Made by a program: the position numbers and the translations under genes. Positions 35,234 to 62,571 of a stretch of DNA of 64,000 nucleotides are shown here, one piece after another. The notes under the pieces are model-generated. The model had not been told where the DNA came from and did not search any database. It was given only the letters and a program-made list of their open reading frames with translations. The DNA is from Candidatus Agathobaculum pullistercoris (GTDB lineage: Bacteria; Bacillota; Clostridia; Oscillospirales; Butyricicoccaceae): positions 6,989-70,988 of the forward strand of contig DXFS01000019.1 of assembly GCA_019114345.1 (NCBI GenBank). The letters are read 5' to 3'. Each line of letters starts with the position of its first letter. Within the stretch, counting starts at the first letter, position 1.

Positions 35234-35238
35234 GACTG

Positions 35239-35418: not shown

Positions 35419-35438
35419 AATAAGGGAGGCTGGTCAAT

Positions 35439-35921: not shown

Positions 35922-35966
35922 ACATAACGAACAGCCCCGCCGGGATACAAGGAGGTGTACTGCGGC

Positions 35967-36386
35967 ATGGCGTATTTGTCGGGCGCTTATTTCGAGGTGC
36001 TTCTGATCGGCACAGGCGCTGTGCTGGAGGGGAAATTTACCTCGGTTTCCGGACTGGATATGGAGATTGAATACGAGGTGTTCAACGAAGGCGGGCTGAA
36101 CTACCCGCGGTTCTTTTTCAAGCAGAACAAGCCGCAGGTGCTTGTGCTCGAACAGGGCACAGTGACCAGCGTGGATTCGGTCTCGCTGCTGATGAACATG
36201 TGTAATCTGGGCATGTCCATCCCGCTGGCGGGCACGGTCATTCTCAAGGACAGCTTCGGCACACCGCAGCGCACCTGGTCGATTGTGGGCGCGTACCTGC
36301 AGAAGTATGTGGGTCCGTCGCTGAACAGCAACCAGGCCGCACTGGCGGTCAGCCGGATCGAACTGATATACAATGGGTGCTGCTGA
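35967..36386 (+). CDS. third tube-like protein (gp19 family)
   Basis: FTSVSGLDMEIE...EGGLN, LVLEQG, KYVGPSLNS, IELIY. Confidence 0.85.
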   Translation: MAYLSGAYFEVLLIGTGAVLEGKFTSVSGLDMEIEYEVFNEGGLNYPRFFFKQNKPQVLVLEQGTVTSVDSVSLLMNMCNLGMSIPLAGTVILKDSFGTPQRTWSIVGAYLQKYVGPSLNSNQAALAVSRIELIYNGCC

Positions 36387-39877: not shown

Positions 39878-39892
39878 GCAGAAAGGAGCCGG

Positions 39893-40630: not shown

Positions 40631-40654
40631 TAACACGGAAGGAGGCGGACGGAA

Positions 40655-42549: not shown

Positions 42550-42603
42550 CCAGGGCGGACAGGAGCTTCGCGCGGCACAGGCCGCGGAAAGGAGTGGAAG
42601 CAA

Positions 42604-43023
42604 GTGAACGGCAAGGAGTTTTTGGGCCGGGGGCTGAAGTTCCCGCTGCAGGTGGACCCGCGGACCGGAAAATTCGCCATGGTCGGGCAGGAAGAGGATA
42701 TCCGCGAGGCCATCGGCATCATCCTGAATACCGTACAGGGCGAGCGCGTGATGCGGCCGGGCTTTGGCTCCAACGTGATCGAATACACCTTTGCCGCCGC
42801 CTCCAGCTCCATGCTGAACAGCATCGCCTACGAGGTGCGTGAGCAGCTGCTGCTCCAGGAGCCCCGCATTGAGGACGTGGAGGTGGACTGCCGCGAAATG
42901 AACCGGATGACCGGGGCAATCGTGGTAGAGGTCAGCTATACGGTGCGCAGTACCAACAACCGTTATAACCATGTTTATCCGTTTTACATGACAGAAGGCT
43001 CGGAGGGGGGTAACGTGCTGTGA
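42604..43023 (+). CDS. gp25/GPW baseplate protein (Afp9-like)
   Basis: FLGRGLKFP, GERVMRPGFG, EPRI, VYPFY. Confidence 0.94.
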   Translation: MNGKEFLGRGLKFPLQVDPRTGKFAMVGQEEDIREAIGIILNTVQGERVMRPGFGSNVIEYTFAAASSSMLNSIAYEVREQLLLQEPRIEDVEVDCREMNRMTGAIVVEVSYTVRSTNNRYNHVYPFYMTEGSEGGNVL

Positions 43024-45911: not shown

Positions 45912-45941
45912 AAAAACAGATCAGGAAGGGAGGGTCGGCCT

Positions 45942-47999
45942 GTGCTGATCCCGCGCAAGCTGGATGACCAGCGTTTTGAAGATATCCTGCACGAGGCGGT
46001 CGGCCGCCTGCCGTGGCTGTGTCCGCAGTGGACGGATCATAACGCCCATGACCCGGGCATCACGATCCTGGAGCTGATGGCCTGGTATAAGGAAATGCAG
46101 CAGTACCAGATGGACCAGCTCACCCCCTCCCTCCGGCGGGGCCTGCTGGCGCTTGCCGGGGTGCGCCCGGCGCTGCCGCAGCCGGCAGTCTGCGCGCTGG
46201 AGACAGACACTGCGCAGGAGCGGCCCGCACTCAGCCGGCTGACCAGCCGGCAGGAGGTATGCTTCGAGCTGCTTGAGCCGGTCGTCCAGCGCCGCACGGT
46301 GCTTGAGCGCGTGCAGATCGAGCAGGAGGACAGTCGCACAGATGTGACCGACCTGCTGGCAGGACGCATGGAACTCAGGCCCTTTGTATTCAGCGGACAG
46401 CGCGGCAGCGTGCTGCGGCTGGGCTTTTCCGGTGAGCCGGGGCAGGAGCTGCGGCTGTGGTTCGATATCACGCCGCCGATGGGGGCGGAGCGCAACCCGT
46501 TTGCCCCGGATCAGGATCCGCCGCGGGAAATTGCGTGGACTTTTGAAGGGTCAGCGTCGGTACAGCCGCTGTCCGATGAAACCTATGCGTTCAGCCGGAG
46601 CGGCTATGTGCGCCTTGCCGCGCCGGAGGACTGGCCCGCGGATGCGGATGGACTGCGCTGGCTGCGGCTGGCGCTCGCGCGTGCGGGCTGCGAGGAGCAG
46701 CCGCGGCTGTGCGGCGTCTCCGACCGACGGTACCAGGCGGCGCAGCAGCAGACCCGCGCCCGCAGCCACTGGTTCACCGTAGAGGCCGGGGCCGGGCAGC
46801 GTGTTGCGCTCGAGGATGCGCTTGCCCGCACGGCGGAGCTCGCGGTGTTCCGGCGCACGGCGCAGGGCTGGGAACAGCTCGCGCAGTATCAGGAGGAAAT
46901 CAGCGGGCAGGCGCGCGCCCTGGTGCTGGACGCGCAGGGCGTAGCTGCGGACGGCGAAGCCAATATACTGGTGGTCTGCCTGGACCCGGTCAGGGTGCAT
47001 GACCTGCTGTTTGATACAATGGGCCGGCCGGGGGAGGAGCTGTACCTCAACTTGGACGGGCAGACCGTGCTCCCGCAGCACTTCCGCCTGCTCTGCCAGA
47101 CACTCGAACCGGACGGCGCGGTCCGCCCGGCAGTGTGGCACTGTGTGGACGATCTGTATGCCTGCGGTCCGCGCGACCGGGTGTTTGCCTACGACCCGGT
47201 GCGGGAGACGATCTCCTTCGGCAACGGGCAGTATGGTGCGATGGTTGTGCCGGGCAAGGGTTCTGTGCTGGTGATGGATTTGGTGGTGTCCCAGTGCAGC
47301 ATGGGTAACATCCCGGCAGATGTCGGCCTGTATTTCGAGGACGGCGGGCAACCGGCCGGCAATACCGCCGCCTGCGGCGGGCAGGACGGCGAGTCCCTTG
47401 CAGAGGCGGGGCAGCGGCTGCTGCGGCAGCTGCGCCACACGGGCAAGTGCCTCTCCGCTGCCGATTATGAGGAACAGGCGCGGCGGACGCCCGGCCTGCG
47501 TGTTGCGGCGGCGAAAGCCCTGCCGGACTATGACCCGCAGGCGCCGGTAGGCGCGCGCGGTCGCGCGATGGTGACCGTGGTGGTGCTCCCGGCTTCAGAG
47601 GAAAAACGGCCTGCGCCGGATGCGCGCTTTCTGGCGGCGGTATCCCGCCAGCTGGAACGGCACCGGACGATCGGCGTGCGCACGCAGGTGATCGGCCCGC
47701 GGTATGTGGACGTTGATATAGCGGTGCAGGTGCGCACCAACGGGACGCTGGAGGGACAGACGGTTGTATCTGCCCTGGAAGCGTGCCTGTCGGTCGAGCG
47801 GGCCGATATCGGTGCACCGGTGCGCCGGAACGATATTCTGGCGCTGCTGCAAAAGCTGCCCGGTGTGCTGGAAGTACAGCGGCTGGAGCTGCGCGGCGCG
47901 GGGCAGAATGTGTACCAGACTGCGGCGGGCGACATCCGCGTGCCGCCGGATGCGGTTGCCGTTCTGCGGCGCGCGGATGTGGAGCTGGTCCGCATATAG
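45942..47999 (+). CDS. second baseplate J-like wedge protein
   Basis: LDDQRF, PQWTDHNAHDPGITILEL, SFGNG, GGQDGE, DYE. Confidence 0.92.
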   Translation: MLIPRKLDDQRFEDILHEAVGRLPWLCPQWTDHNAHDPGITILELMAWYKEMQQYQMDQLTPSLRRGLLALAGVRPALPQPAVCALETDTAQERPALSRLTSRQEVCFELLEPVVQRRTVLERVQIEQEDSRTDVTDLLAGRMELRPFVFSGQRGSVLRLGFSGEPGQELRLWFDITPPMGAERNPFAPDQDPPREIAWTFEGSASVQPLSDETYAFSRSGYVRLAAPEDWPADADGLRWLRLALARAGCEEQPRLCGVSDRRYQAAQQQTRARSHWFTVEAGAGQRVALEDALARTAELAVFRRTAQGWEQLAQYQEEISGQARALVLDAQGVAADGEANILVVCLDPVRVHDLLFDTMGRPGEELYLNLDGQTVLPQHFRLLCQTLEPDGAVRPAVWHCVDDLYACGPRDRVFAYDPVRETISFGNGQYGAMVVPGKGSVLVMDLVVSQCSMGNIPADVGLYFEDGGQPAGNTAACGGQDGESLAEAGQRLLRQLRHTGKCLSAADYEEQARRTPGLRVAAAKALPDYDPQAPVGARGRAMVTVVVLPASEEKRPAPDARFLAAVSRQLERHRTIGVRTQVIGPRYVDVDIAVQVRTNGTLEGQTVVSALEACLSVERADIGAPVRRNDILALLQKLPGVLEVQRLELRGAGQNVYQTAAGDIRVPPDAVAVLRRADVELVRI

Positions 48000-48031
48000 C
48001 GGCCGCCAAGATCCCGTAAAGGAGGGAAAAC

Positions 48032-49129
48032 GTGAGCGCGATTCAGGATTTCATGACATTATGCTGCCGTGAGCAGTGGCGGAACGGGCTGTTCCACCAT
48101 GTTTCATGCGAGGGCGATGTACTGGCGCTGCAGCCGCAGCACCATACCGGAGCGTTCTGCCTGCCGCCCGTGGACAGCGGGGAGAAGGGTTTTGCGTGGA
48201 GCAGGCTGATCGTGGACGCTGAGCTGCCGCAGGACAGCGGGCTGCGCATTTATACCCGCTGCGCGGACGAGCCGGACTGGAAGGCATGGGAGGAGCTGCG
48301 GGCAGCCTTTGCCGCGCAGGAGGAGGAAAATCCCCTGCCGCTGCTGCGCCGCTGCTACGGAACGCCTGAGCCGTCCGGCACGGACTGCTGGCTTTCCGGA
48401 ACCGGCCGCTACCTTTGGGTCGCGTTTGAGCTGACGGCAACCGGGGCGTGCATGCCTTCCGTCACAGCGCTGCACCTGCGCATGGGCGGCGACCACATGC
48501 TCGACTATCTGCCGTCGATCTACCGGGGAGACGATTTCACCCGGCGCTATCTTTCCATTTACAACAGCATGTTTCAGGATATGGAGGATGCGGTGGAGGC
48601 CCTGCCGCGGCAGCTGGACGCGGCAAGCGCATCGGATGAAATGCTGGGCTGCCTGGCGCAGTGGGTGTGCATCGAGCCGGGGGAAAAGGATGTGCGTGCG
48701 CGTATCCGTACCGCGCTCGGTGACTTTGAATCCATGTATACCGTGGAAGGGGTCAAGCGCAGTGTATACCGCCTGACCGGACGGATGCCGCTGATTATAG
48801 AACACTTTTCGGTAGACCCCAACCGGGCGGACTGCCGGAACCCTGTGCTGTACCGCAAGCTGTACGGCGATAACCCCTACCGCTTTTTCATCCTGCTGGA
48901 TGAGAATGCCTTTGCCAGCCGCGACCGGATGGAATGGTTCCTGACGCGGATGCAGGACCTGATCCCGGCGGGAACAGAGCTGGAATTGGTAATGCTCAAG
49001 CAATGCGTGCAGCTGGACTGGCACACCTATTTGGGCGTGAACTCACGCGTGGGCAGCTATATCCCTGCGGTGATCGACGAAAACGTCACGATTCATTATG
49101 ATACAACGATCGGAGGAGCCACAACATGA
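48032..49129 (+). CDS. P2 gpI-like baseplate/tail protein
   Basis: YLPSIYR...FTRRYLSIY, LAQWV, TVEGV, IPAGT. Confidence 0.85.
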   Translation: MSAIQDFMTLCCREQWRNGLFHHVSCEGDVLALQPQHHTGAFCLPPVDSGEKGFAWSRLIVDAELPQDSGLRIYTRCADEPDWKAWEELRAAFAAQEEENPLPLLRRCYGTPEPSGTDCWLSGTGRYLWVAFELTATGACMPSVTALHLRMGGDHMLDYLPSIYRGDDFTRRYLSIYNSMFQDMEDAVEALPRQLDAASASDEMLGCLAQWVCIEPGEKDVRARIRTALGDFESMYTVEGVKRSVYRLTGRMPLIIEHFSVDPNRADCRNPVLYRKLYGDNPYRFFILLDENAFASRDRMEWFLTRMQDLIPAGTELELVMLKQCVQLDWHTYLGVNSRVGSYIPAVIDENVTIHYDTTIGGATT

Positions 49130-50934: not shown

Positions 50935-51663
50935 ATGGAAACAGTAATGGTACGCGGGCGGTATAAGATCGTTCGCGTGTTGGAGGCGGGAAACGATTAT
51001 GCCTTTGCGGAGGCCGTGGATATCACGGAGCGTGAAACCCCTGTGCGCCTGCTCAATATCTATGAGGGGACATGGCTGCCCATCTATGCGCGGATCTTCT
51101 CCGAGATAAGGGATTGCCCGGCCTTCTGCGAGGCGTTCCTGGCGGAGGAGAGCCTGGCTGCGGTGTTCCTGCCCTGCGGCGGCGTGCCGATTGACCGCGT
51201 GTTTTACCGCGGCGCCGACTGGCCGTGGCGCGACCGGCTGGAATTTACCGAGCAGCTGCTGCATCAGGCGCTGGCCATGGCAAACCTGCCGCCGGCGGTC
51301 AGCTGCGCGGCGCTGCTGGCAGATAATGTGCGGGTGGATGTAGACGAAAAGCGCATTTCGCTGCGGTTCCGCATCCGTCCAATGGAGGATATGAACGCGC
51401 GCGAGCTGGCGCTGCTCGCCTCCGACCATGCGCGCAAGATCCTGGCGCCCCGGTTCCGGCAGGGGGATGCGGAATATGCATTCTGCCGTCGGCTGGAGCG
51501 GGGGGAGTTCCTGTCCATCGTCCTGCTGTACGCGGGCTGGCACAGGGCGATGGAGGAGATCAGGGCGGAATACGAAGCGCTCGACCGGAAAAATGCGTTC
51601 AAGCGCTGGTTTACATTCCTGTGGAAAAATGTGAAGAGGTTCTTCAGAAAAAACCGGAGGTAA
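50935..51663 (+). CDS. kinase-fold-like protein lacking catalytic motifs (candidate pseudokinase)
   Basis: GRYKIVRVLEAG...AVD N-lobe and L..DNV.V; no VAIK, HRD or DFG; basic amphipathic C-terminus. Confidence 0.55.
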   Translation: METVMVRGRYKIVRVLEAGNDYAFAEAVDITERETPVRLLNIYEGTWLPIYARIFSEIRDCPAFCEAFLAEESLAAVFLPCGGVPIDRVFYRGADWPWRDRLEFTEQLLHQALAMANLPPAVSCAALLADNVRVDVDEKRISLRFRIRPMEDMNARELALLASDHARKILAPRFRQGDAEYAFCRRLERGEFLSIVLLYAGWHRAMEEIRAEYEALDRKNAFKRWFTFLWKNVKRFFRKNRR

Positions 51664-51667
51664 GGCT

Positions 51668-54262
51668 GTGGGTGCGGCACGAAACAAGATATCATTTATA
51701 ATTATCGGCGTATTGGCCGCGTTTGTGCTGGCGCTGTTTTTTCAGCCGCTCGCGGCGGACTGTGTGTCCGTTCTGGCGAACGGCTGGGGGACAAGGCGGT
51801 ACCTTGCTGCGGCGGCAGGCGGTGAGTCGGTCGCGGCGGTCAGCCGCGAGGACGAGGCCTTCCGCGTGACGACGGGCACGCTGGACGGCAGGCGCACGGA
51901 CGAGTGGACGGTGCATTTGCCGGTTTCGGCAGAAACATGTACGGTCGCCGGGCTGTATCCGGCGGCAGACGGGGCGGTGTGGCTCGGCGTTTATGAGCCG
52001 GCGGACAGCGCGTCGGAAAACCTGACGGTTTACCGCATACCGGCTGACGGGGAGACAGAACGCCTGCTCGTGTACCCCTGCTCCGGTGAAACGGCTGCAG
52101 AGCGCAGGCAGGGGACGTTCCTGTCCAGCTTCAGCGAGCAGGACGGCGAGGTCCGGTTTGCGCTGGTAGACGACGGCACGGCGCAGGTATACCGCTACGG
52201 CGGCGCGGGAAGCGGGCTGCAGCAGGGCGAAATACAGCCTGCCTATGATGCGTCCACGGCAGCCGTGCTGGCGGATGGGAGCATCGCGCTCGGCGGCACG
52301 GAGTGGCTGGAGCTGGATGGGAGAAGCGTGGACTTTTCCCTGGACAACTGCATAGTGACGAATTTGACACAGGTTGGCGCGGGTCTTTTTTACATAGACG
52401 GTGCCAGCCTAAAGGTGTTTTATTGCGACCTGACCGGGACCGAGTGCGCAGAGGTGTTTGACCTGGGGCGCAGCACGGCGCTGGACGGGCTGAACAGCCT
52501 GTCGATCGGCCGGGACGGCAGCGTACTGCTGCTGCGCGACGGGCATACGCTGGAACTGGTGACAGAAAGCCGCACGGTTTCGCTGAACAGCGTGCTGTAC
52601 CGCTCCGGGGCAGCCGGTATTGCGATCCTGGCTGGCCTGCTGATCGGCTGGCTGCTGGTGACCGCGCTTATCTGGTATCTGCTGTGCGGACGGCGGCGCA
52701 GCTATCTGCCGCTGGCGGTCGGCGCAGGCGGCAAGCTGGCTGTGTGCGCGCTGGTGATCGGCGCGCTGGTGAGCGGGCTTGTGGTCAGGCCGATGGTGCG
52801 CAGCAACATGGCGCGCGAGGTGGAAAACGTGCTGGCAGGCGCTGCCGTACTGGCGGCGGACAGCGGCGTATCGGCCGAAGAACTGCCTGCGCAGATCGTG
52901 GACAGCCTAACGGCGCTGTCCTCAGGCGATTATGCAGCGGTGACAGCTGCGGTTTATGAACAGAGCGGTGACGGCTGGCTGGTACGCGGCGACAGCGGCA
53001 CGCTGCCGGCAGGGAGCCGGGCGGCGCTTTCGCCGGGCTTTTCCGAAACGCTTGCACAGCAGGCGGTGCAGGACGGCAGTGCCTTTTCGCAGGAAGGGAA
53101 CACCTTCCGGCTCTGCCTGTACCGCGACGGGCAGGTGCTTTATGTGATGGTTGCGGACGGCGCGCTGGGCGCGCGTCTGGACGCCGGTATTTCGCGCAGC
53201 GTGTCCGGCCTGTGGGCGGGCATCGCGCTGCTTTGGGCGGCGGCGGTGATCACGTTGCTGCTGGTTGGACGCAACCTCGGGCGCGTCGGCCGTGCGATGG
53301 AGCAGCTGTCCGGCGGGGATATGGAGACGCGGCTCGCCCTGTCCACAGGGGATGAGGTAGAGGCGCTGGCCACATCGTTCAACAGTATGGCACGCGCCAT
53401 GCAGCGGCAGGAGGACAACCTCGCCGGGCTGATCCGTGCCTATCTGCGGTTCGTGCCCGAGCGCGTGCTGGCGCTGCTGGGGAAGGAATCCGTCCTCGAT
53501 GTCGACAAACGGACGTTTGCCGCGCGGCGCATGTCTGCGATGATGGTATGGTTCGAGTTCCCGGAACGGGTGTATGACAACTCCACGCGCGCCCTGTTTG
53601 AAAGCATCAATGAAGTGATCGAGCGGACTGCTGCGATCGTAGCGCGCAAGGGCGGCACGGTGTTCAACTTTGCCTATAACGGCTATGACGTTGTACTGGA
53701 CGGCGGGGAGGCCGAGGCGGTCAGCACGGCGGTAGCCGTACAGCAGGAGGTGCTCTCGCTCAACGAGCAGCGCGCGATCGACGGCCTGCCGACGGTCACG
53801 CTCCGCATTGCGCTGGATGTTGGCGAAGTGATGATCGGCATTGTCGGCGACGAGAACCAGATGGAACCAGCCACGATTTCATCGAGCTTTACGACGGCGC
53901 GCCACCTGATCGGCCTGGCAGGGAGGCTCGAGGCCGGTATCCTGTGCACCGAGAATGTGATCGCGGGTGCAGCGGGCTACGGAAGCCGCTATATGGGCAA
54001 GACCCGGCAGGGAGACGACATGCTTCGCGTTTATGAGATATTCGACGGGGATCCGTACGGCATACGCCGGGGCAAGGAGACATCCGGCCGGCAGTTCTCG
54101 CAGGGCGTATTCGCGCTGTACAGCCACGATTTTGCGGCAGCCAAGCGGATCTTCCTCGAGTTGGTGCACGACCATCCGGGCGACGGCGGAGCGCGGTATT
54201 ACCTGTATCTGGCCGACCGGCTTGCGGGACAGCCGGATCAGGAAGTCAGCCTGGAAGATTGA
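51668..54262 (+). CDS. multi-pass membrane sensor with HAMP and degenerate class III nucleotide cyclase domain
   Basis: TMs; GDEVEALATSFNSM HAMP; YLRFVPE..L.LLG, GEVMIGIVG, VYEIFDGD. Confidence 0.82.
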   Translation: MGAARNKISFIIIGVLAAFVLALFFQPLAADCVSVLANGWGTRRYLAAAAGGESVAAVSREDEAFRVTTGTLDGRRTDEWTVHLPVSAETCTVAGLYPAADGAVWLGVYEPADSASENLTVYRIPADGETERLLVYPCSGETAAERRQGTFLSSFSEQDGEVRFALVDDGTAQVYRYGGAGSGLQQGEIQPAYDASTAAVLADGSIALGGTEWLELDGRSVDFSLDNCIVTNLTQVGAGLFYIDGASLKVFYCDLTGTECAEVFDLGRSTALDGLNSLSIGRDGSVLLLRDGHTLELVTESRTVSLNSVLYRSGAAGIAILAGLLIGWLLVTALIWYLLCGRRRSYLPLAVGAGGKLAVCALVIGALVSGLVVRPMVRSNMAREVENVLAGAAVLAADSGVSAEELPAQIVDSLTALSSGDYAAVTAAVYEQSGDGWLVRGDSGTLPAGSRAALSPGFSETLAQQAVQDGSAFSQEGNTFRLCLYRDGQVLYVMVADGALGARLDAGISRSVSGLWAGIALLWAAAVITLLLVGRNLGRVGRAMEQLSGGDMETRLALSTGDEVEALATSFNSMARAMQRQEDNLAGLIRAYLRFVPERVLALLGKESVLDVDKRTFAARRMSAMMVWFEFPERVYDNSTRALFESINEVIERTAAIVARKGGTVFNFAYNGYDVVLDGGEAEAVSTAVAVQQEVLSLNEQRAIDGLPTVTLRIALDVGEVMIGIVGDENQMEPATISSSFTTARHLIGLAGRLEAGILCTENVIAGAAGYGSRYMGKTRQGDDMLRVYEIFDGDPYGIRRGKETSGRQFSQGVFALYSHDFAAAKRIFLELVHDHPGDGGARYYLYLADRLAGQPDQEVSLED

Positions 54263-54285
54263 GGGCGGACAGGAGGCCTGCATAA

Positions 54286-54705
54286 ATGGGATTGACACAG
54301 CTTGATATCATCCGGAAACAGATCGAGTCCGCTGCGAAAAACCGCGCCGCGGGCGAGGCGGCAAAGCTGCGGCGGAAAACCAGCCTGATCGGGGAGATCA
54401 GCCGGTTGACCGGCAAGGCAAACCGAACGATTGACCAGGCGGGGCGCGAAGCGGTGCGCTGGCGCGCAGGCCGCCGGCCGGATGTTCTGGAAGATGAGAC
54501 GGAATGGGATGAGCCGGATGAAGGCGCGGAGGCACCGCACATCTGTGCGGACGGCTATGTGCGCCGCTCGCCCGAGCAGCCGCTGTATACGCCGCCGGAC
54601 TACCGGCGCAGGCTGCTGCGCCGGGCCGCGGGAATTGCAGTAGCCGTGCTGCTGGCGCTGGCTGTGCTGTGGCTGCTGGTCCATTATTCCGTTCTAAGCA
54701 TTTGA
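54286..54705 (+). CDS. small protein with C-terminal membrane anchor
   Basis: AGGAGG RBS; GYVRRSP.QP; one C-terminal TM. Confidence 0.72.
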   Translation: MGLTQLDIIRKQIESAAKNRAAGEAAKLRRKTSLIGEISRLTGKANRTIDQAGREAVRWRAGRRPDVLEDETEWDEPDEGAEAPHICADGYVRRSPEQPLYTPPDYRRRLLRRAAGIAVAVLLALAVLWLLVHYSVLSI

Positions 54706-54751
54706 GGCACATACCGCGTAAGCGGTCCATATATCTGGGGAGGAACACGTT

Positions 54752-57130
54752 TTGCTGAGCCATTTGCTGACACAACTGCTGCGGTCCTTCGGAATTTTTT
54801 TCCGTACGATCCGTGCGTTTTTTACCCGCCGGCTGGTGGGTCTGTGGGCGCGTCTCAAGCGGCTCACCAATTTTTCGCGCCAGGCCACAAAGGTGGCTGC
54901 GGATTCGCTGCAGTCCGCGGCGGCAATCGCAAAAAAGCCGACCTCGCGCGGCGATTACGTGGAAACCGGGCGATTGTTCATCTCCAAAAAGTTTTTGCTC
55001 ACGATTGCGGTCGGCATTATCGTGCTGGCGCTGCTGGCATATTTTGTGGCATGGCCGTTTATCCTGAGCCATTTCTTCACCGCGCATTTTTATGTGGAGG
55101 ATTCCCGTATTGATAACTGGACCGGGCGCGTGGTTGTTTATTCGGATGAGGCAAAAACCATCCCGCTCTACGAGGGCAGGCTGGAGGACGGCCTGCTGCA
55201 GGGTCAGGGAAAGGAATACGATGAAACCGGGCTGCTCACCTATGAGGGGGCATTTGTAGACGGCCAGCGGGAAGGAAAGGGTACTGCCTATGAGGCGGGG
55301 ATCCTTTTGTACGAAGGCGACTTTGCCGCCGGGGTTTATGAGGGGCAGGGTACGCTGTATCAGGACGGTGTGCTGCTGTACGAAGGCAGCTTTTCCGGCG
55401 GTGTGCAGTCCGGTGAGGGCACGGAGTATTACGGAAGCGGCAGCGTGCGCTACAAGGGAGCGTTCGCAGACGGCCTGTATGAGGGCCAGGGAACGGAATA
55501 CGACGAGCAGGGCGCCAAAGTGTATGAAGGCAGCTTTTCGCAGGGGCTTTACAGCGGCGAAGGCAGCCTGTATCCGGCGGAAAACGAACGGATCGACGCG
55601 ACTTTTGCAGAGGGCGAACCGGATGGGGCGATCCAGTGGTATAAGTCGGACAAGCTGTATTATGACGGCGAGGCAGACGGCATTACGCCTTCGGGCTTCG
55701 GCACCCTGTATACCCAGAGCGGCAAGACTGCCTATGTGGGGCAGATGGCGAACGGCACGGTCGACGGCACCTGGCTGGTGACGCTGACCGCAGATGAGTT
55801 CCGCGAGGCGCTTGGGGAAAGCAGCACCATTGACTATGACGATGTGAACGGCGGCTTTGTGATTTACTCACCATCCATCGGCCTGTCCGCGCTGTGCAGC
55901 TATCAGACGGCGGACAGTGATCCGGCGGTACATACGGTCTATCTGTCTGCGCCGCGCGAATCCCGTTTTGCGCTGCTGCCGGGACAGGATGGGGTGTCGC
56001 TGACAGACTGGCCGAACCCCACTGTGAGCACACGGAGATACAGCGAGACCGACGGCGTGAACCTGGACTCCGGCACATATTCCAGCGAGGTATATGAGCT
56101 GGACGGCTGCCGCGCCGAGGTGCTGCGTAAAAATGATGAAGCGGTTCTGCTCAGCTGGGCGCTGACCAGCGCCATGCCGGACTCGGATGTAACGAGCACC
56201 TCGCAGGAGGCGCAGGCGGCCGAGGAAGAGCAGAAACAACTGGAGGAATTCCTGGAATCCCTCAGCAATATGTCCGGCACAGGAGCAACACAGACCACAT
56301 CGGAAAATCCCTATTACGGGCAAACCGCAGTGTCAGATGCGCTGGCCGGCTGTATGAACACGCAGGAGGCGGAGGCAGCGGTCGATGCACTGCTGACCTA
56401 TTGGGAGAATGCAGAGAGACGGCTTGCACTGGAGAACAATCTAACGCGCACGCAGGAACTGCTGCGCGATGCGCAGCGTGCCGAGGCAAGCGGCACGGGC
56501 AGCGCGGATGCGGTGGCTGAGCTGGAGGCCCAGCAGAATACGCTGAACAGCCAGATCAACAGCTGCATTGTTGAAATGTCCAAGGCTTCCATGGAGGCTG
56601 CAGATGCCGGCGTGAGCGATCCGTCCCTGTATGCATTAAACGAACTCTCTGTTCTGTTTAATCCGATGACGCTGGATACGGATGATCTGGCGTTGGTTGC
56701 GACGGCCTATGCGCAGGCGCTCGCAGGGGAAAGCGGGACGCAGACCGGCACGGGCGATGCAGCATCCGGCGATGAAACCGAGGCGGAATCGTCCGTGGAC
56801 GGGGAGGCGATCCGGCTGTCCCTGCAGACCTCGCTGGCCGACCTTGCTGCTGCATATAACGAAGTGCAGAGCGCGATTACTGCGTATGAGCAGGCGGCAG
56901 ATGCCGCATCGTCTGCAGCCGGGGCGTATTCGATGGGCACCGGAACGAAGGCGGACTGGTATGATGCCCTGTCCGCGCGCACGGACAGCCAGGTTTCCAT
57001 CTATGCTGCGCTGCGCGCATTTACCAGCCAGGTCAACGCGCTTAACAGCATGACCGGCGGCTGGGTATCGCGCACGCAGGGGTGGATGACAGATGCGCTG
57101 CTGCCGCTTTACAACACGGCCGCGCAATAA
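54752..57130 (+). CDS. membrane-anchored MORN-repeat protein with TolC/OEP-like helical C-terminus
   Basis: one TM; ~8 YEGxFxxGxxxGxG repeats; two helical segments resembling OEP repeats. Confidence 0.8.
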   Translation: MLSHLLTQLLRSFGIFFRTIRAFFTRRLVGLWARLKRLTNFSRQATKVAADSLQSAAAIAKKPTSRGDYVETGRLFISKKFLLTIAVGIIVLALLAYFVAWPFILSHFFTAHFYVEDSRIDNWTGRVVVYSDEAKTIPLYEGRLEDGLLQGQGKEYDETGLLTYEGAFVDGQREGKGTAYEAGILLYEGDFAAGVYEGQGTLYQDGVLLYEGSFSGGVQSGEGTEYYGSGSVRYKGAFADGLYEGQGTEYDEQGAKVYEGSFSQGLYSGEGSLYPAENERIDATFAEGEPDGAIQWYKSDKLYYDGEADGITPSGFGTLYTQSGKTAYVGQMANGTVDGTWLVTLTADEFREALGESSTIDYDDVNGGFVIYSPSIGLSALCSYQTADSDPAVHTVYLSAPRESRFALLPGQDGVSLTDWPNPTVSTRRYSETDGVNLDSGTYSSEVYELDGCRAEVLRKNDEAVLLSWALTSAMPDSDVTSTSQEAQAAEEEQKQLEEFLESLSNMSGTGATQTTSENPYYGQTAVSDALAGCMNTQEAEAAVDALLTYWENAERRLALENNLTRTQELLRDAQRAEASGTGSADAVAELEAQQNTLNSQINSCIVEMSKASMEAADAGVSDPSLYALNELSVLFNPMTLDTDDLALVATAYAQALAGESGTQTGTGDAASGDETEAESSVDGEAIRLSLQTSLADLAAAYNEVQSAITAYEQAADAASSAAGAYSMGTGTKADWYDALSARTDSQVSIYAALRAFTSQVNALNSMTGGWVSRTQGWMTDALLPLYNTAAQ

Positions 57131-57144: not shown

Positions 57145-58464
57145 ATGGGCTTGGCTGATTACACCGCCATTGTCGAGGCAGGCAACGCAGTGGTAGACCT
57201 GCTGCGCGACAACCTGACCCCTGAGCCGCTGGGCAACCGCGAACTGATCGCGCTGTGCTCCCCGCATGAGAGCGAAAACAACCAGCTGACGCTGTATCTG
57301 TATCACATCGAGGAAGAAAACCAGAACATGACAAGCGGTTACTACCAGCTGGACCAGACGACCCAGCGCCGCGCAGCAGCGCAGTTTACGCTGCGCTATC
57401 TGGTGACCGCACATTCCAAGGCGCCGGTGCAGCTCCGGCAGGCTGACCAGCACCGCATTGTCGGCGCGGCAATCCAGACCCTGCGCGACAATCCGGTCAT
57501 GCCACAGCAGTACCTTGCGGGTTCGCTTGCGGAGGAGCATGCGCAGCTGCATCTGGCGGTGGAAAAGGTGCCGCTCGAGCAGCTGCTCAAGATCTGGAAC
57601 AACACGTCAAAGGAATATAAGCTGTCCTTTGTGCTGATGGTCACCGGCGTGACGATTGCCTCCAAGCGGAAGCGTCAGGTCACGCGCATCACAGACTTCG
57701 AGGTCTCGGTCAATCCGGAGACACACGAGAGCCTGGTGCAGCGCAGCGTCAGCGCCGTGCTGCGGCTGCGGGACGGCTTCCTGGGCACGCCGATCGAAAA
57801 CGGCGGCGCGCTGTTCCGTATCGACGGGATTCCCAGCCAGCCGCAGGCCAAGCCGGGCGGGTACCGGGTTTGGACCGGCCTCGCGGAAGGACGGCACACC
57901 CTGTCGGTCAGCATGCGCGGTTTCCAGACCGAGGAACTCATCGTGGATATCCGGCCCGGTCAGGTGTGGGAAGGCAGCGCCGACCTCAAGCCCGGGCTGG
58001 GCTATCCGTTTGGAAAGGATGCGGTCACCGTGCGCCTGACCGTGACGCGCGGCGGGCAGCCGTTGGCGGACCAGCCGGTATGGCTGGCCGTGGCTGACCC
58101 TGCACCGCTCAAGCTTGCGCAGGATAAGGCGGAAAAGGGTGCGCAGACGCTGCGCCTGTTCTGCAGGGGAGAGGCGAGCGCGCTGCCCGTGCCGGGCGTA
58201 TTCCTGCTGGAGGAAGGGAAAGCGCCCGAGCTGGTGACACTGCAAGCGGTTGAAGGAGAGGACGGCCGGCTCGCCGTGCCGCTGGCGCATGCGCACGCGC
58301 GCGGCAAGGCACTCCTGCCTGCACAGCAGTACCGGACGGACGGGCAGGGCCGCATCAGCGTGATGCTGCGCGAGGCGGTAAGGCTCGCCGTGTTCTGCAA
58401 TGGCAGCATACAATATGCCGAACCCGGGACAGAAGGGGAGCAGACGATCACCCTTCGGTTTTGA
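57145..58464 (+). CDS. cap/tail terminator Afp16/Pvc16 (DUF4255) with C-terminal extension
   Basis: LTLYLYHIEE, LRYLVTAH, LRDNP, IW...YKLS, then ~250 aa beta-rich extension. Confidence 0.88.
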   Translation: MGLADYTAIVEAGNAVVDLLRDNLTPEPLGNRELIALCSPHESENNQLTLYLYHIEEENQNMTSGYYQLDQTTQRRAAAQFTLRYLVTAHSKAPVQLRQADQHRIVGAAIQTLRDNPVMPQQYLAGSLAEEHAQLHLAVEKVPLEQLLKIWNNTSKEYKLSFVLMVTGVTIASKRKRQVTRITDFEVSVNPETHESLVQRSVSAVLRLRDGFLGTPIENGGALFRIDGIPSQPQAKPGGYRVWTGLAEGRHTLSVSMRGFQTEELIVDIRPGQVWEGSADLKPGLGYPFGKDAVTVRLTVTRGGQPLADQPVWLAVADPAPLKLAQDKAEKGAQTLRLFCRGEASALPVPGVFLLEEGKAPELVTLQAVEGEDGRLAVPLAHAHARGKALLPAQQYRTDGQGRISVMLREAVRLAVFCNGSIQYAEPGTEGEQTITLRF

Positions 58465-58479
58465 TAAGGAGAAAACACC

Positions 58480-58857
58480 ATGGCAAATCCAGTAGTCAAC
58501 ACAGCGGTATGCACCTGTTCGTTCGGCACCCTGCCGATGGTGCTGCCCGTCACCTCACAGCAGACTGTCACAATGTGCGGCATGACGGCAGCGACCATTA
58601 TGGATAACAAATGCACGACCTTTGGCATGTGTTCCTGCCCGGCAAACCCGGCAGTCGCCGCAGCGACCGCCGCAGCGATGGGCGTGCTCACCCCAAGCGC
58701 CTGCATCCCGGTGACCCCGGCGCCGTGGGCGCCCGGCGTGCCGACCGTGACGGTCTGCGGCAAGCTGCTGCTCAATAACACCAGCAAGCTGATGTGCCAG
58801 TACGGCGGCGTGATCCAGGTGAGCATGACGCCGGCGATGACGATCAAAACGCCGTAA
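58480..58857 (+). CDS. PAAR-like spike tip (DUF4280)
   Basis: CSFG, FGMC...NPAVAAATAAAMGVLTP..CIP...W.PG, LMCQYGGVI. Confidence 0.93.
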   Translation: MANPVVNTAVCTCSFGTLPMVLPVTSQQTVTMCGMTAATIMDNKCTTFGMCSCPANPAVAAATAAAMGVLTPSACIPVTPAPWAPGVPTVTVCGKLLLNNTSKLMCQYGGVIQVSMTPAMTIKTP

Positions 58858-58873
58858 AAGAGGAGGGGACGCA

Positions 58874-61030
58874 ATGCGGGCGGAGGAGATCCGGCCGGTC
58901 GATCTGACGACCGGCGCAGGCTATGACAGCCAGTGGGCGCTGATGCGCGACCTGTTCGTCTGGCTCGACCTGCGGCTGTACTATTTCTATGCGCACCATC
59001 AATGGCTCGGCCCGTCGAGCGAGATGAAAAATATGCTCGGGCTGGTCGTGACGCGCGAGGAATTTGAGCACCAGCTGGCCAAATCCGCCCAGATGGGGCT
59101 GGAGGAGGAGCTGGAACCGGAGGAAAGCGCCCAGCTTGGGGAGGCGCAGGCGGCGATTGCCCTGCGGCTGGGACGCACGGGCGATGCGGATATCCCGGTG
59201 CTGCACCTGTTCCAGCGATGCGGGCTGGATGCGTTCGAGCAGAACTGCGTCATACTTGCGTATGCGGCGGTGCTCGACCGCAAGTATGAAAAGCTGCTCG
59301 CCTACCTGCAGGACGACATGACCCGCAAAAGCCCGGGCACTGCGCTGGCGGTACAGCTGTTTATGCCGAAGGGCGGCAATATGGAGCAGTATCTGGCACG
59401 GTTCACCCGTCAGGGACGGTTTTCCCGCCTGTTTGAGCGCGAAGCGCTTGCACGGGGCGAGCTCGTGCTGCACCCGCTGACGCTGGAATACCTTTCGGGC
59501 GGGACGATCGCAGACCGCCAGGGGATGACGGTTTTTGACGGCGCAGTGCGCCGTCCGGACGGCCCGCTCATCGTGCAGGGGGACGCCGCGCGGCGGCTGG
59601 ACCGCATGATGGAGGAGCAGCTGCCCTGTGTGCTCTGCCTGTCCGGCGGGGCGGGCAGCGGCAAACGCTTCCAGATCGAGCACCTGCTTGCACGGCAGAA
59701 AAAGCGCGGCATATTCGCCGATCTGGAAGGGGAGGGCTGGCGCGAGCGCGCCGGGCAGGCGGCGCTTGCAGCCTGCCTGCTGGACGCCTACTTGTGCTTT
59801 TACCATCTGGACAGGGAAAATGAAGCGGGCGATCGGATCGCCGCGCCGCAGCAGATGGTGGATGTGCTCTGCGGCATGGAAACCGGAAAAGACCGGTTAT
59901 TCCTGCTTTCCCGCCTGCCGGTGCGGGCGCGGGTGCAGCAGCTGACTGTGGATTTGGAACTGCCGCCGCTCACGGAAAGCGAGCGGCTTGAGCTGTTCCG
60001 AACCCATCTGCGGGGCAGCCGTCTCGCCCCCGATGTGACAGCCGAAGAGCTGGCGGCGAAATTCCATTTTTCGCCGCAGCAGATCCGGCAGGCCTGCCGG
60101 CAGGCGGCGGGCATGGCAGAGCTGGACGGGAACGATATGCTGGACGGCGTGCAGCTGCATGCCGCCTGCTACCGGCAGGTGGTGCACAAGCTGGGCGACC
60201 TGGCGCACCGCGTACCGGCGGCGTACACCTGGGACGACGTGGTGATGCCCGCCGCGCAGAAGCGGCTGATGCAGCAGGCCTGCGGGCATATCCGGTACCA
60301 GTACCGCGTGTATCATCAGTGGGGATTTGAAAAAAAGGTCGCCTATGGCCGCGGCCTGTCCATCCTGTTCGCGGGCGCGCCCGGCACGGGCAAAACCATG
60401 TGTGCGCAGGTGATCGCGCGCCAGCTCAACATGGAGATGTATAAGATCAATATTTCGCAGATCGTCAGCAAATACATCGGCGAGACCGAGAAAAACCTGC
60501 AGGCGGTGTTTGCGGAGGCGAAAAACTCCAATTGCATTCTGTTTTTTGACGAATGTGACGCGCTGTTCGGCAAGCGCAGCGAGGTAAAGGATTCGCACGA
60601 CCGCAATGCAAACGTCGAGGTCGCGTATCTGCTGCAGCAGATCGAGGAATACGACGGGGTGTGCATCCTGGCGACCAACCTGATCGGCAATATCGATGAG
60701 GCGTTCATGCGGCGCATCACCTATGTGGTGCATTTCCCGTTCCCGGACCGCCGCATGCGCGAGGATATTTACCGGCGCATGATACCGCCCGCCGCCCCGC
60801 TGGCTGAGGATATCGACTGGGGCTTCCTGGCGGAGAAGTTCGAGCTGTCCGGCGGACATATCAAAAATATCGTGCTGTCGGCCGCATTCATGGCGGCAGG
60901 CGAAAACAGCCCGATCGGCATGCGGCACCTGCTGCGCGCCGCGGTGGGCGAAATGAAGAAAAATGAGATCGTTGTCGTGCGGGAGGAGCTCCGGGAGTAT
61001 GCCGACCTGCTGGAGGACGAGGGGGAATAG
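58874..61030 (+). CDS. AAA+ ATPase (Afp15-like)
   Basis: YLQDD, degenerate first P-loop GGAGSGKR; GAPGTGKT, SKYIGETEKNL, FFDECDALFGKRSEVKDSHDR.AN, LSGGHIKN. Confidence 0.95.
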   Translation: MRAEEIRPVDLTTGAGYDSQWALMRDLFVWLDLRLYYFYAHHQWLGPSSEMKNMLGLVVTREEFEHQLAKSAQMGLEEELEPEESAQLGEAQAAIALRLGRTGDADIPVLHLFQRCGLDAFEQNCVILAYAAVLDRKYEKLLAYLQDDMTRKSPGTALAVQLFMPKGGNMEQYLARFTRQGRFSRLFEREALARGELVLHPLTLEYLSGGTIADRQGMTVFDGAVRRPDGPLIVQGDAARRLDRMMEEQLPCVLCLSGGAGSGKRFQIEHLLARQKKRGIFADLEGEGWRERAGQAALAACLLDAYLCFYHLDRENEAGDRIAAPQQMVDVLCGMETGKDRLFLLSRLPVRARVQQLTVDLELPPLTESERLELFRTHLRGSRLAPDVTAEELAAKFHFSPQQIRQACRQAAGMAELDGNDMLDGVQLHAACYRQVVHKLGDLAHRVPAAYTWDDVVMPAAQKRLMQQACGHIRYQYRVYHQWGFEKKVAYGRGLSILFAGAPGTGKTMCAQVIARQLNMEMYKINISQIVSKYIGETEKNLQAVFAEAKNSNCILFFDECDALFGKRSEVKDSHDRNANVEVAYLLQQIEEYDGVCILATNLIGNIDEAFMRRITYVVHFPFPDRRMREDIYRRMIPPAAPLAEDIDWGFLAEKFELSGGHIKNIVLSAAFMAAGENSPIGMRHLLRAAVGEMKKNEIVVVREELREYADLLEDEGE

Positions 61031-61053: not shown

Positions 61054-62571
61054 ATGAAAAAGCAACAACGCAATACACTGGCCGGCAGGCTGGCGCCGCG
61101 GTGCGTGCTGTCGGTCCTGGCGCTGACGGCGGTGGATATCCTGCTGGCGGCTGCCCTGCGGCCGGCCGACGGGATGATCGCCGTATGCATTGGAATGGTG
61201 GCTGCGGGAGCTGCGCTGGCAGCGTGGTGGCTGCACCTGCTCCGGGGCGGGGAGGACGGCGGGCTGGACAGTTTGCGCGCGGCGGTCGAGCGCTGTGCTG
61301 CGGATGAGGCGGACAGACTCCCGTCTGAACTGACCGGACGCACCGATGAGATCGGCGCGCTGGCACAGGCTGTCCAGCGCCTTGCGGAACGGGAGGACGG
61401 ACGGCTGGAGCAGGCCTGCCTTTCCGCCGCACGGGAGGCGGAAGAGCGCGCGAGGCGCGGCATGGCGGAGGAGATTTGCCGGTCTGCGCTGCCGCAGGTG
61501 CTGCCGGATATCCCCAGCCGCGCGAACTTTGAGGTAAACGGGCTGATCGAACAGGGTACAGGCAGGGACAGCCGGTTCTACGATTATTTCTTTATCGACC
61601 CCGGCCTGCTGTGTATCGTGCTGGGGCAGACGCCGGGCGGCGGCGTGGCGGAGGCGCTGTTCATGGTCATCGCACAGACGACCATCCGCAGCCGGCTGCG
61701 TCAGGGCCGGTCACTCGAAGAGACGATGGCGGATGTGAACACCCAGCTTTACGATCTGGGAAATCAGTTCAGCCTGAATGCGCTGGTTGCAACGCTCGGC
61801 ACGGCGGACGGCCGGTTCACCTATGTCAACGCAGGGCAGCAGCAGCCGCTGCTCATGCGCAATGAGGACCGCTATGAATGGCTGGAATCGCCGGTCTATG
61901 CGCCGCTGGGCATGAATGAGAATGTATCCTACCGCTCGCAGGAGCTGCGCTTTAAGCAGGGTGACCGGATTTTCCTGCATACGGCGGGGCTGGCGAACCT
62001 GCAGGACCGGGACGGCGAGGCCTATGGCGGGCAGCAGCTGCGCGCGGACCTGAACACCAGCCGCAGCAAAAACCTGGATGGCGGGGAGCTGCTGCGCTTT
62101 GTTGCCGATAAGGCGCTGGTGCACTGCGGCTCCAGCACGGAAAACGGTGGCTTTGCCATGCTCACGCTGCTGTTCTGCAAGGGCGATAAGGAACTGGCCC
62201 ACTGCGATGTGCCCGCGCGGCCGGAGTATGCATCTGAGGTGACGGAGTTCCTCAAAAAGCAGTTCGAGGACAACGGCATCGACAAGCGCCACTATGCGCG
62301 CGAAGCGGTCGTGGTGGATGAAGTGTTTGCGCTCTGCTGCCGCAAGGCGGAGCCGGACAGCCATGTGATGGTGGAGTGCGGCGTTGCGCCGGACGCCCAG
62401 ATGGTGAACATCCGGGTGACCGCCGTGCTGGGCGGCGTGGACCCGATGGAAAGCACGGATGCTGATCCGACGGAAAACGCGGTCAGCTTTATCCGGGACA
62501 ACGCAGATTACATCACTTTCAAACCGGGAGAGGAGCGGGACACGATCACGATCGTGTGCTTCCTGAGCTGA
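61054..62571 (+). CDS. 2-TM/HAMP-like + degenerate PP2C (SpoIIE) + degenerate anti-sigma HATPase fusion
   Basis: FYDYFFID, ALFMVIAQTTIR, YVNAG; catalytic motifs replaced; C-terminal VVDEVF...DPM domain. Confidence 0.82.
   Translation: MKKQQRNTLAGRLAPRCVLSVLALTAVDILLAAALRPADGMIAVCIGMVAAGAALAAWWLHLLRGGEDGGLDSLRAAVERCAADEADRLPSELTGRTDEIGALAQAVQRLAEREDGRLEQACLSAAREAEERARRGMAEEICRSALPQVLPDIPSRANFEVNGLIEQGTGRDSRFYDYFFIDPGLLCIVLGQTPGGGVAEALFMVIAQTTIRSRLRQGRSLEETMADVNTQLYDLGNQFSLNALVATLGTADGRFTYVNAGQQQPLLMRNEDRYEWLESPVYAPLGMNENVSYRSQELRFKQGDRIFLHTAGLANLQDRDGEAYGGQQLRADLNTSRSKNLDGGELLRFVADKALVHCGSSTENGGFAMLTLLFCKGDKELAHCDVPARPEYASEVTEFLKKQFEDNGIDKRHYAREAVVVDEVFALCCRKAEPDSHVMVECGVAPDAQMVNIRVTAVLGGVDPMESTDADPTENAVSFIRDNADYITFKPGEERDTITIVCFLS

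Follow-up and report, generated by a model that had tools for sequence, protein, structure and literature searches.

A conserved cassette of membrane-protein genes in contractile injection operons of Bacillota, a candidate envelope dock and trigger

Does a contractile injection system (CIS) encoded by a walled Gram-positive bacterium act as a free particle, or can it be held at the envelope of the cell that produces it? This question is raised by a locus of Candidatus Agathobaculum pullistercoris, present in a window of 64,000 nucleotides (the whole stretch of DNA analysed here, from contig DXFS01000019.1). Pfam and NCBIfam scans identify on its forward strand (32433-61030) a complete CIS operon of the Afp/PVC type, in which the genes for the sheath, three tube-family proteins, a CIS_tube/LysM protein, a split hub and the spike, gp25, two baseplate J proteins, a Cis12-like protein and a Cis13-like protein are followed by four genes, hereafter A, B, C and D, and then by Pvc16, DUF4280 and AAA ATPase genes. 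The whole Afp/PVC core set is present (sheath, tubes, LysM/CIS_tube, spike, gp25, baseplate J, AAA ATPase and Pvc16), together with the traits given for subtype IIa in the definition of the dbeCIS survey (PMC6899500), i.e., two afp11 copies, a split afp8 and divergent afp12 and afp13; the operon appears to be subtype-IIa-like by gene content, the tree built here holding no dbeCIS reference rows. A preliminary description of the window, made from its letters alone, had proposed that A to D encode a membrane complex turning the CIS into a cell-attached machine similar to a type VI secretion system (T6SS). Comparison of loci indicates that this cassette is a conserved, CIS-specific set of membrane-protein genes confined to one CIS clade. 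Whether it serves as a dock for outward firing or as a trigger recruiting free particles, it probably links the CIS to the cell's own envelope.

Loci were gathered by searching for Pvc16, which was found in 12 of 399 genomes of a class sample, 10 of 401 of a phylum sample and 19 of 401 of an order sample; further loci were obtained through D in the family (matches in 32 of 164 genomes, many of them to MORN repeats only) and through A, and the genes were mapped with local profiles. Among the 38 loci with a Cis13-like gene of about 590 amino acids, A is present in 34, B in 35 and D in 37, and 32 loci contain all three, whereas A, B and D are lacking in all seven loci with other fibres, within the flanks examined. 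Eleven of the 38 loci were found through A or D, so that the fairer set consists of the 27 loci found by Pvc16 alone, 24 of which contain A, 25 B and 26 D. Among the loci with a missing gene, G1037 is cut off within B by the end of its contig, whereas G005 and G1147b have a decayed appearance. Six more Pvc16 loci without a Cis13-like gene in the DNA examined (contig ends, lone Pvc16 genes, other types) were excluded from the counts. The preliminary description had named synteny across Bacillota CIS loci as a check of its proposal, and in these counts the cassette is conserved; its statement that canonical Afp/PVC loci have no such cassette holds for the seven Bacillota loci with other fibres, but the cassette is the rule and not an oddity in its own clade.

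In the Oscillospirales order sample (401 genomes), Pvc16 occurs in 19 genomes and A in 17, all 16 A hits with E ≤ 1.6e-15 being located in Pvc16 genomes; about 4% of the sampled genomes (16/401) thus carry this cassette type. The 17th match (E = 4.4e-6), the only one among the 382 genomes without Pvc16, is an open reading frame (ORF) of 952 amino acids with no CIS gene within about 8 kb. Some rows of the profiles come from the sampled genomes themselves, which inflates scores and does not explain absences. In a quick LG+G4 tree of baseplate J (no bootstrap; long branches and uneven composition flagged), the cassette loci occupy one side of a branch separating 27 from 8 rows (SH-aLRT 98). The gene set is retained while gene order varies, with B relocated behind DUF4280, and with A inverted in two loci.

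In the window, the four ORFs are intact, located on the forward strand and each endowed with a ribosome-binding site. The Cis13-like gene is separated from A by 27 bp, A from B by 4 bp, B from C by 23 bp, C from D by 46 bp and D from Pvc16 by 14 bp, so that the four genes and the gaps of 4-46 bp reported previously are recovered exactly. Their order and spacing are preserved in relatives, the nearest named ones by gene A being Agathobaculum and Butyricicoccus contigs (83-87% identity), with Agathobaculum ammoniilyticum among the carriers. Compared with four relatives, A, B, C and D each have a dN/dS of 0.10-0.29, and each is single-copy in the source assembly (77.4% complete). The flanking genes are recognised by NF053767 for the Cis13-like protein (E = 1.9e-25, below the family cut-off) and by Pvc16_N for the cap (E = 5.5e-27). 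The earlier characterisation of A as kinase-like with an amphipathic tail, of B as a multi-transmembrane HAMP pseudo-cyclase, of C as a small tail-anchored protein and of D as a TM-MORN protein with an amphipathic N-terminus is upheld for all four by the analyses that follow, which add a beta-propeller in B and a TolC-like domain in D that it had not seen.

The window protein A has no Pfam or NCBIfam match, and the profile of one alignment (A1) matched nothing among the sequences of solved structures. Its AlphaFold model (pLDDT 90.6, with 111 sequences in the alignment) matches Hanks-type kinases (VIA Z 13.8, rmsd 3.0, 192 aligned; Foldseek E = 1.2e-7), and the best sequence match of a profile of the 65-sequence A family is Stk1/PknB of S. 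aureus (E = 2.6e-4). The kinase fold covers approximately residues 1-210 and is followed by a C-terminal amphipathic helix (221-239; FKRWFTFLWKNVKRFFRK) whose hydrophobic moment of 0.83 corresponds to the 99.98th percentile among 18-mers of 26 locus proteins. The canonical kinase motifs are the Gly-rich loop, the beta3 Lys, the catalytic Asp and DFG. At the positions taken from the Stk1 alignment, none of the 65 homologues has GxGxxG, a Lys at 40/41 or an Asp at 126, which indicates that A is a pseudokinase; a DFG-like motif is present anywhere in only three of them. In the alignment, the amphipathic tail corresponds to a helix that, in most homologues, leads into a genuine transmembrane helix (TM), and 22 of the 34 A genes of loci with the Cis13-like gene encode their own TM. 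A LysM domain is present in 5 of the 65 homologues. No match to A was found in phages. In two unrelated loci, A is inverted in place and still lies beside the Cis13-like gene (G161 and G628; L116:8240-9493 and L079:10180-11079); we rejected a phase-variation switch, since no clean inverted repeats flank A in these two loci. The weak match outside CIS genomes mentioned above is a kinase-like protein (L127:5774-8632) encoded among genes resembling a Tad/Flp pilus set.

The preliminary description had compared A with EssB/YukC, the pseudokinase scaffold of the type VII secretion system of Bacillota (T7SSb). The parallel stands for the architecture, a pseudokinase followed by a TM in secretion machinery of Bacillota, but not for family membership. 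YukC (PF10140) is not among the families listed (25 of 45) for the 65 A homologues and has no match in the source genome, EssB is not among the best 50 matches listed by the Foldseek or VIA fold searches with A, and the outside part of A is a short tail or LysM, whereas that of EssB is a helical domain. The nearest named Atlas clusters to A are YukC-like (0.89-0.90), which is a lead only.

The protein encoded by C has a single C-terminal TM, preceded by five K/R and followed by none, and a conserved motif DGYxRxSPxQ. This gene is present in 11 of the 12 loci where A has no TM of its own and in none of the 22 where it has one, while G046 has neither A nor C. The 11 C-bearing loci form one subclade, so that this pattern amounts to about one gain and one joint loss rather than 11 events. 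In the simplest reading of these sequences, C would replace the anchor of A. An origin of C by duplication of the N-terminus of D was considered (hhalign probability 14%, E = 0.002) and is a lead only.

Gene B encodes a protein with four TMs by hydropathy and a HAMP domain (E = 5.6e-9), organised as TM, beta-propeller, two TMs, a second domain, TM, HAMP, class III cyclase and a helical C-terminal tail. The family profile retrieves beta-propellers with its first 300 positions (E = 3.8e-23), as well as class III cyclases (2w01, E = 1e-15; CyaB, E = 2.6e-13), and homologues match Guanylate_cyc; one of the 28 rows of the alignment behind this profile is wrong (a D sequence), and the motif counts come from a clean alignment. 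Counting TMs from a cytoplasmic N-terminus, the beta-propeller and the domain between TM3 and TM4 are predicted to be extracellular. Class III cyclases use two metal-binding Asp and an Asn/Arg pair. B has W628, N671, T742 and H746 at the Asp, Asp, Asn and Arg positions (the second Asp position being taken from the 2w01 alignment), and none of 32 homologues keeps both metal-binding Asp; judging from these residues, the cyclase domain is predicted to be catalytically dead.

The N-terminus of D is amphipathic (99.5th percentile) and is followed by one TM (approximately 82-104, with three K/R before and one after) and by MORN repeats (E = 1e-13). In the model of residues 330-792 (pLDDT 84.6), a middle alpha/beta domain precedes a C-terminal helical domain. 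For the middle domain, one D homologue matches DUF4309 (E = 0.014). The seven best VIA matches of residues 524-792 are all outer-membrane factor (OMF) channels (Z 13.5-15.8, 231-249 aligned; the next match has Z 8.4), Foldseek retrieves TolC (E = 4.4e-7), and Pfam detects tandem OEP helical repeats (OEP, E = 0.002). The domain has the helical fold of the TolC/OMF family, and it differs from that family in having no beta-barrel (no strand of three residues or more after model residue 142), in being fused behind a TM-MORN stalk and in having no pump partners in the operon. A TolC-like domain occurs in 19 of the 38 loci, fused to D in 12 of them; in the other seven, a shorter D is followed by a separate secreted-type protein, which has OEP repeats (E = 1.5e-11 to 1.4e-4) as well as a hydrophobic segment at its N-terminus. 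Grouping fused and separate domains into one family was not supported (hhalign probability 1.5%). A 426-amino-acid protein of G529 (TolC-likeness probability 7%) was left out of these counts, and secreted proteins of 397-432 amino acids located after D in G094, G106 and G161 were rejected as TolC-like, those of G106 and G161 matching Cu_amine_oxidN1. On another contig of the source genome (C97:1684-8799), two TolC-like secreted genes lie beside adaptor-like and RND-like genes, as labelled by inspection; they likely represent an ordinary efflux set and possibly the kind of source from which the domain of D was drawn. TolC-like proteins are known from monoderm Firmicutes, mostly with efflux-pump partners (PMC8809574).

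The Cis13-like protein had been taken for a fibre, placing the cassette between fibre and cap. The Pvc16 cap is indeed located downstream, but the upstream protein is not a variable fibre. Its identity in the ten closest loci is 70-95%, compared with 50-88% for the first baseplate J protein, and in each of these loci it exceeds that of both baseplate J proteins, hub and spike; its dN/dS (0.05-0.11) is the lowest of 11 genes compared. Since a target-binding fibre should vary, this conserved protein behaves, at the sequence level, like an internal adaptor between baseplate and membrane rather than a receptor-binding fibre. Its length is 427-637 amino acids across the 38 loci and it has a C-terminal Ig (Big_2-like) domain, Big_2 being detected in 5 of 29 homologues. 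The profile matches 790 clusters; among solved sequences it retrieves only an Ig domain (E = 0.011) and All3314 of the tCIS (E = 0.14), and an Atlas search retrieves unnamed Bacillota clusters. Loci of the Clostridium type have instead three long fibres, up to 1923 amino acids, with Peptidase_S74. Two partial matches were found in plasmids, the one in Paenibacillus belonging to a CIS whose fibre is longer and which lacks cassette genes in the 30 kb examined. A lies directly 3' of the adaptor gene, and a complex predicted for the adaptor and residues 1-222 of A has a weak score of 0.34, compared with 0.00 for the best control; the runs agree on at least 88% of contacts, with a partner pLDDT of at least 82. 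The score mark is reached by 116 of 157 solved pairs and 2 of 215 mismatched pairs, but with a score of 0.60 or less it is reached by only 18 of the 157 solved pairs and by both mismatches. This prediction shifts the odds a little, no more.

Several features point to an envelope location: the LysM domains of A homologues, the TolC-like domain, and neighbouring genes, with SLH proteins following B in G754 and G089 and an AMIN protein encoded in the G200 locus. A candidate effector is encoded upstream of the operon, in divergent orientation, by a DUF4157 (eCIS_core) gene, the only match in this genome (77% complete). Its relatives have a common N-terminus and different C-termini, a polymorphic-cargo pattern that, on sequence grounds, fits delivery to other cells.

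We favour the hypothesis, to which we give about an even chance, that the cassette docks a cell-attached CIS at the envelope and triggers it, the machine firing outward in the manner of a T6SS. The Cis13-like protein, similar in role to TssK, would connect A, on the cytoplasmic face, with the baseplate wedge, in line with the weak complex prediction. Both its amphipathic helix and C would keep A at the membrane, the latter standing in for the TM of most A homologues, and in some relatives LysM on A, or the SLH and AMIN neighbours, may tie the dock to the wall or S-layer. D would span the wall via its MORN repeats, with the TolC-like helices lining or bracing the exit; the tube does not fit through a normal TolC trimer, and a larger ring or an opening step would therefore be needed. 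B would sense an outside cue and transmit it through HAMP to its dead cyclase domain, acting as a conformational trigger instead of producing a second messenger, and the cargo would be the DUF4157 proteins with swapped C-termini. From the membrane complex proposed previously, a clade-confined, CIS-specific membrane set with wall-binding and TolC-like domains can be retained; attachment itself is weakly predicted, by the adaptor-A complex.

Several observations weigh against such a dock. The argument relies on sequence comparison and predicted models, the loci are related, so that the counts given above are not independent events, and the weak pass of the adaptor-A complex is of a kind more often wrong than right unless the interaction is likely beforehand. 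A was not found in 4 of the 38 loci (G046, G200, G765 and G005), and HAMP-cyclase genes resembling B are also encoded at a distance from CIS cores (G469, G877). The TolC-like part is missing from 19 of the 38 loci, and its fused and separate forms align weakly, indicating that it is not a universal conduit. By simple geometry, a 12-helix ring would have a lumen of about 28 Å, too narrow for a CIS tube, which is about 80 Å wide. The Pfam and NCBIfam scans detected no peptidoglycan hydrolase among the genes of the window operon, and the operon retains features of extracellular CIS (eCIS), namely the Pvc16 cap, the tape-measure-like gene and the Afp15-like ATPase. Finally, the only characterised CIS of a monoderm bacterium that we found in the literature, CIS-Sc of Streptomyces coelicolor, is located in the cytoplasm, and its authors consider it difficult to imagine how a thick wall could be crossed by firing (PMC10066040).

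CIS-Sc also provides the main rival explanation, which we consider unlikely but serious: the cassette would be a membrane receptor or trigger comparable to CisA, with free cytoplasmic particles recruited briefly on a stress or contact signal and firing into the producer's own envelope, leading to death, release or development. CisA, a bitopic protein whose gene occupies the tail-fibre position, is required for contraction in situ (PMC12237407), and the two systems are alike in their monoderm host, in a membrane-protein gene at the fibre end of the baseplate genes and in its proposed role as sensor and trigger. The sensor-like build of B, with two predicted outside domains, HAMP and a dead cyclase, suits this explanation, as does the lack of the TolC-like part in half of the loci, and both the co-occurrence and the weak complex prediction fit it equally well. 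However, CIS-Sc belongs to subtype IId and, as described, has no tail-fibre gene, a single bitopic protein with a disordered N-terminus, free-floating particles and a self-killing outcome, whereas three or four conserved membrane genes with long predicted extracellular parts are present here, none of A to D sharing the CisA architecture on comparison of architectures. The wall-binding domains and the TolC-like domain (19/38 loci) exceed what a cytoplasmic trigger needs, the DUF4157 genes with variable tails suit competition, and suicide would pay less for the hosts, which are unicellular Bacillota of gut and soil. It is the amount of predicted extracellular structure, together with the variable cargo, that leads us to favour a stable dock firing outward.

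An improbable alternative is a separate surface apparatus, co-regulated with the CIS, that exports, displays or tethers particles or an accessory protein through a TolC-like channel, the particle itself being extracellular. The usual association of monoderm TolC-like proteins with efflux pumps would agree with it, as would the TolC-like genes beside efflux-type genes elsewhere in the source genome and an HlyD/ABC set in the G094 locus. Against it, the Pfam scan found no pump adaptor or ABC/RND gene in the window operon, an assembled particle, given its known size, cannot fit a channel the size of TolC, and the Cis13-like protein does not vary as a fibre that binds targets would.

A purely regulatory role is slightly less probable again: a chain formed by B, A and the downstream SpoIIE/HATPase/STAS proteins would control expression or assembly of a lysis-released eCIS with no contact with the particle. 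Genes for HAMP sensors, pseudokinases, PP2C phosphatases and STAS proteins do recur in and beside the loci, and pseudo-enzymes often serve as signalling scaffolds. Such a role leaves unexplained D with its MORN and TolC-like parts, the wall-binding domains, the fixed adjacency of adaptor and A and the change of fibre type with the clade, and the SpoIIE genes are restricted to the closest subclade. That A to D are mere passengers inserted in the operon is hardly credible, even with B-like genes outside CIS loci, given the lack of a strong A match in the 382 genomes without Pvc16, the purifying selection on the cassette genes and the maintenance of the set through several changes of gene order.

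Among known systems, the canonical T6SS (TssJLM/TssK/TagL) would resemble this one only in its logic, with a baseplate adaptor, inner-membrane partners, a wall-binding domain and a trans-envelope part; it differs in that the present CIS is of the Afp/PVC type with Pvc16 and Afp15. TssK, TssL and TssM (PF05936, PF09850, PF14331) have no match at the locus or in the source genome (77.4% complete; E. coli control positive), and the locus has no TssB/TssC sheath or ClpV, with a single Phage_sheath_1 gene and a single-AAA Afp15-like ATPase instead. Since TssK, TssL and TssM were not found, the system is not a member of T6SS i-iii and at most works like one. Clade-specific membrane-protein genes linked to the CIS locus, the mark of the T6SS mode in subtype iv and in archaea, are present. 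In the haloarchaeon Halogeometricum borinquense, where such proteins mark this mode and the closest Cis11 relatives are from Bacillota (PMC11566945), an eCIS-type machine is likewise located at the cytoplasmic membrane without an outer membrane, attachment being predicted from genes in our case. The archaeal anchor candidate is described as a single protein with six TMs (Hbor_38620 set apart by description), with nothing seen outside the membrane and no peptidoglycan to cross, whereas three or four proteins with large predicted extracellular parts are found here. The T6SS-iv of Aureispira (10.1101/2024.01.29.577165) also combines an eCIS-type machine with a trans-envelope complex other than TssJLM, outside antennae being proposed as trigger; compared by description, it differs in its diderm host, and TolC is unmentioned in its text.

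Such loci are filed as extracellular CIS by dbeCIS (PMC6899500) and eCIStem (PMC8213781). By labels and sizes only, eCIStem lists a matching gene order and matching sizes in Oscillibacter valericigenes (OBV_26190-26150) and MORN and HAMP-cyclase genes in Cohnella panacarvi, and matching or MORN-bearing loci are listed for O. valericigenes and nine Paenibacillus genomes. The same survey counts MORN among the domains over-represented at eCIS loci (17 genes, odds ratio 14, one phylum), under a 'Eukaryotic domain' label in its supplement, the main text being silent on it. No membrane cassette, pseudokinase or TolC-like domain was found described in what we consulted of these two surveys. More generally, neither the cassette nor a T6SS mode of a walled Gram-positive bacterium was found described in the literature searched, which did not include the dbeCIS subtype-gene figures and bioRxiv supplements, where some of the genes may be shown. 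The loci are therefore already catalogued in eCIStem, while the cassette itself is apparently undescribed.

Table 1. Positions of the CIS operon, its cassette and associated genes (window coordinates, or locus handle followed by coordinates).
Feature	Position	Strand	Basis
CIS core genes, sheath through Cis12-like	32433..49129	+	Pfam/NCBIfam scans
Chaperone-like gene (119 aa) and tape-measure-like gene (1166 aa)	within 32433..49129	+	no family match
Cis13-like gene, 593 aa	49126..50907	+	NF053767 over residues 9-148
Gene A, predicted Hanks-fold pseudokinase, 242 aa	50935..51663	+	
Gene B, predicted 4-TM HAMP pseudo-cyclase, 864 aa	51668..54262	+	
Gene C, tail-anchored, 139 aa	54286..54705	+	
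Gene D, TM-MORN and TolC-like, 792 aa	54752..57130	+	
D middle alpha/beta domain, residues 334-472, DUF4309/YjgB-like	55751..56167	+	VIA Z 8.4, rmsd 3.5, 119 aligned to 4ygt (middling score)
D C-terminal TolC/OMF-like helical domain, residues 524-792	56321..57127	+	VIA, Foldseek, Pfam
Pvc16 cap (second domain fused), DUF4280 spike-tip-like gene, Afp15-like AAA ATPase	57145..61030	+	Pfam scan
2-TM HAMP-SpoIIE(PP2C)-HATPase-like gene, closing the operon	61054..62571	+	Pfam scan; syntenic in close relatives
DUF4157 (eCIS_core) protein, candidate effector	26877..29903	-	Pfam E 1.7e-18
Secreted helical proteins after D or the TolC-like gene	L055:6332-9175, L061:13778-19924, L084:18633-19826, L116:13640-14938, L128:5217-6491		
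Toxin-type neighbours	L096:16897-19884, L049:9946-13977, L121:15437-17032, L131:17495-18583		

The tape-measure and chaperone genes of the core are presumably such, from their position and general knowledge of these operons. The HAMP-SpoIIE gene starts 23 bp past the end of the AAA ATPase gene and is followed 3' by a terminator-like hairpin (62583-62607). SpoIIE/HATPase genes are present at the operon end in the close subclade and STAS genes beside several loci (the window, L029, L054, L062, L088 and L096 for the two together); such a partner-switching module may regulate these CIS. Upstream of the sheath, three genes of no known family (30032-32265, forward strand) are conserved in G002, G081 and G104; by eye, the last one (about 131 amino acids, from 31870) resembles proteins with a YbjN/CesT-type chaperone fold. 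In the DUF4157 protein, the middle part is rich in glycine and mildly hydrophobic and the C-terminal half is charged; no solved relative of this protein was found. Its gene is followed by a 170-amino-acid gene (26304-26816, reverse strand), present only in the closest relative and without family match, which may encode an immunity protein or a chaperone. A nonribosomal peptide synthetase with a single module (C-A-PCP-reductase) is encoded on the reverse strand (17341-21603), upstream of two-component genes.

In many other loci, secreted helical proteins, several with a C-terminal Cu_amine_oxidN1 domain, are encoded after D or the TolC-like gene (Table 1); they are lacking in the window and are a candidate fifth part of the cassette. 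Toxin-type domains (ADP-ribosyltransferase, GH-E nuclease, SsdA-like deaminase and a VgrG3-like C-terminus) are encoded beside other Bacillota CIS loci. An ABC_sub_bind protein recurs beside cassette loci (L058:3220-6584, L123:14712-18361, L064:9014-10216, L080:3908-5104), in two cases with an unusually long major facilitator superfamily (MFS) protein of 747-803 amino acids; the N-terminal part of one of these MFS proteins weakly resembles the second outside domain of B (E = 3e-5). Lysis genes were rejected as a discriminator between modes of action: among 102 of the 138 flanking ORFs without annotation, and four from L131, no holin or endolysin family was detected (E 1e-5) near loci of either type, so that their absence is uninformative; the surroundings of three cassette-free loci contain a LysM-only gene, a YkuD gene and a PG_binding/C39 gene. 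Contigs containing the stretch are present in RNA runs from chicken gut. In run X1, genes and intergenic DNA are evenly covered, resembling DNA carry-over, and in run X8 the contigs over the sheath and first tube genes have a depth of 18-21, compared with about 2-7 elsewhere; contig depth cannot rank genes, and we make no claim of expression from these runs.

Type VI secretion has been described for diderm bacteria and some archaea (PMC12237407), and a metagenomic survey places gut CIS mainly in Bacteroidota (PMC12210884). We tentatively suggest, at rather less than an even chance, that a widespread Bacillota clade (Clostridia and, by eCIStem labels, Paenibacillus and Cohnella) built a T6SS-like system from an eCIS, with a TssK-like adaptor, a pseudokinase scaffold, a HAMP pseudo-cyclase trigger, and MORN stalks with a barrel-less TolC ring crossing the peptidoglycan. 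If this is true, walled Gram-positive bacteria would have in it their first contact-dependent contractile weapon, one whose membrane complex is unrelated to TssJLM, and butyrate-producing gut Clostridia may own an unrecognised weapon. With candidate parts named, firing through a Gram-positive wall can now be tested in cultured strains. Even if the cassette acts in the manner of CisA, it would represent a new multi-protein membrane trigger for CIS, made by recycling a kinase and a cyclase that are both dead and a TolC that lacks its barrel.

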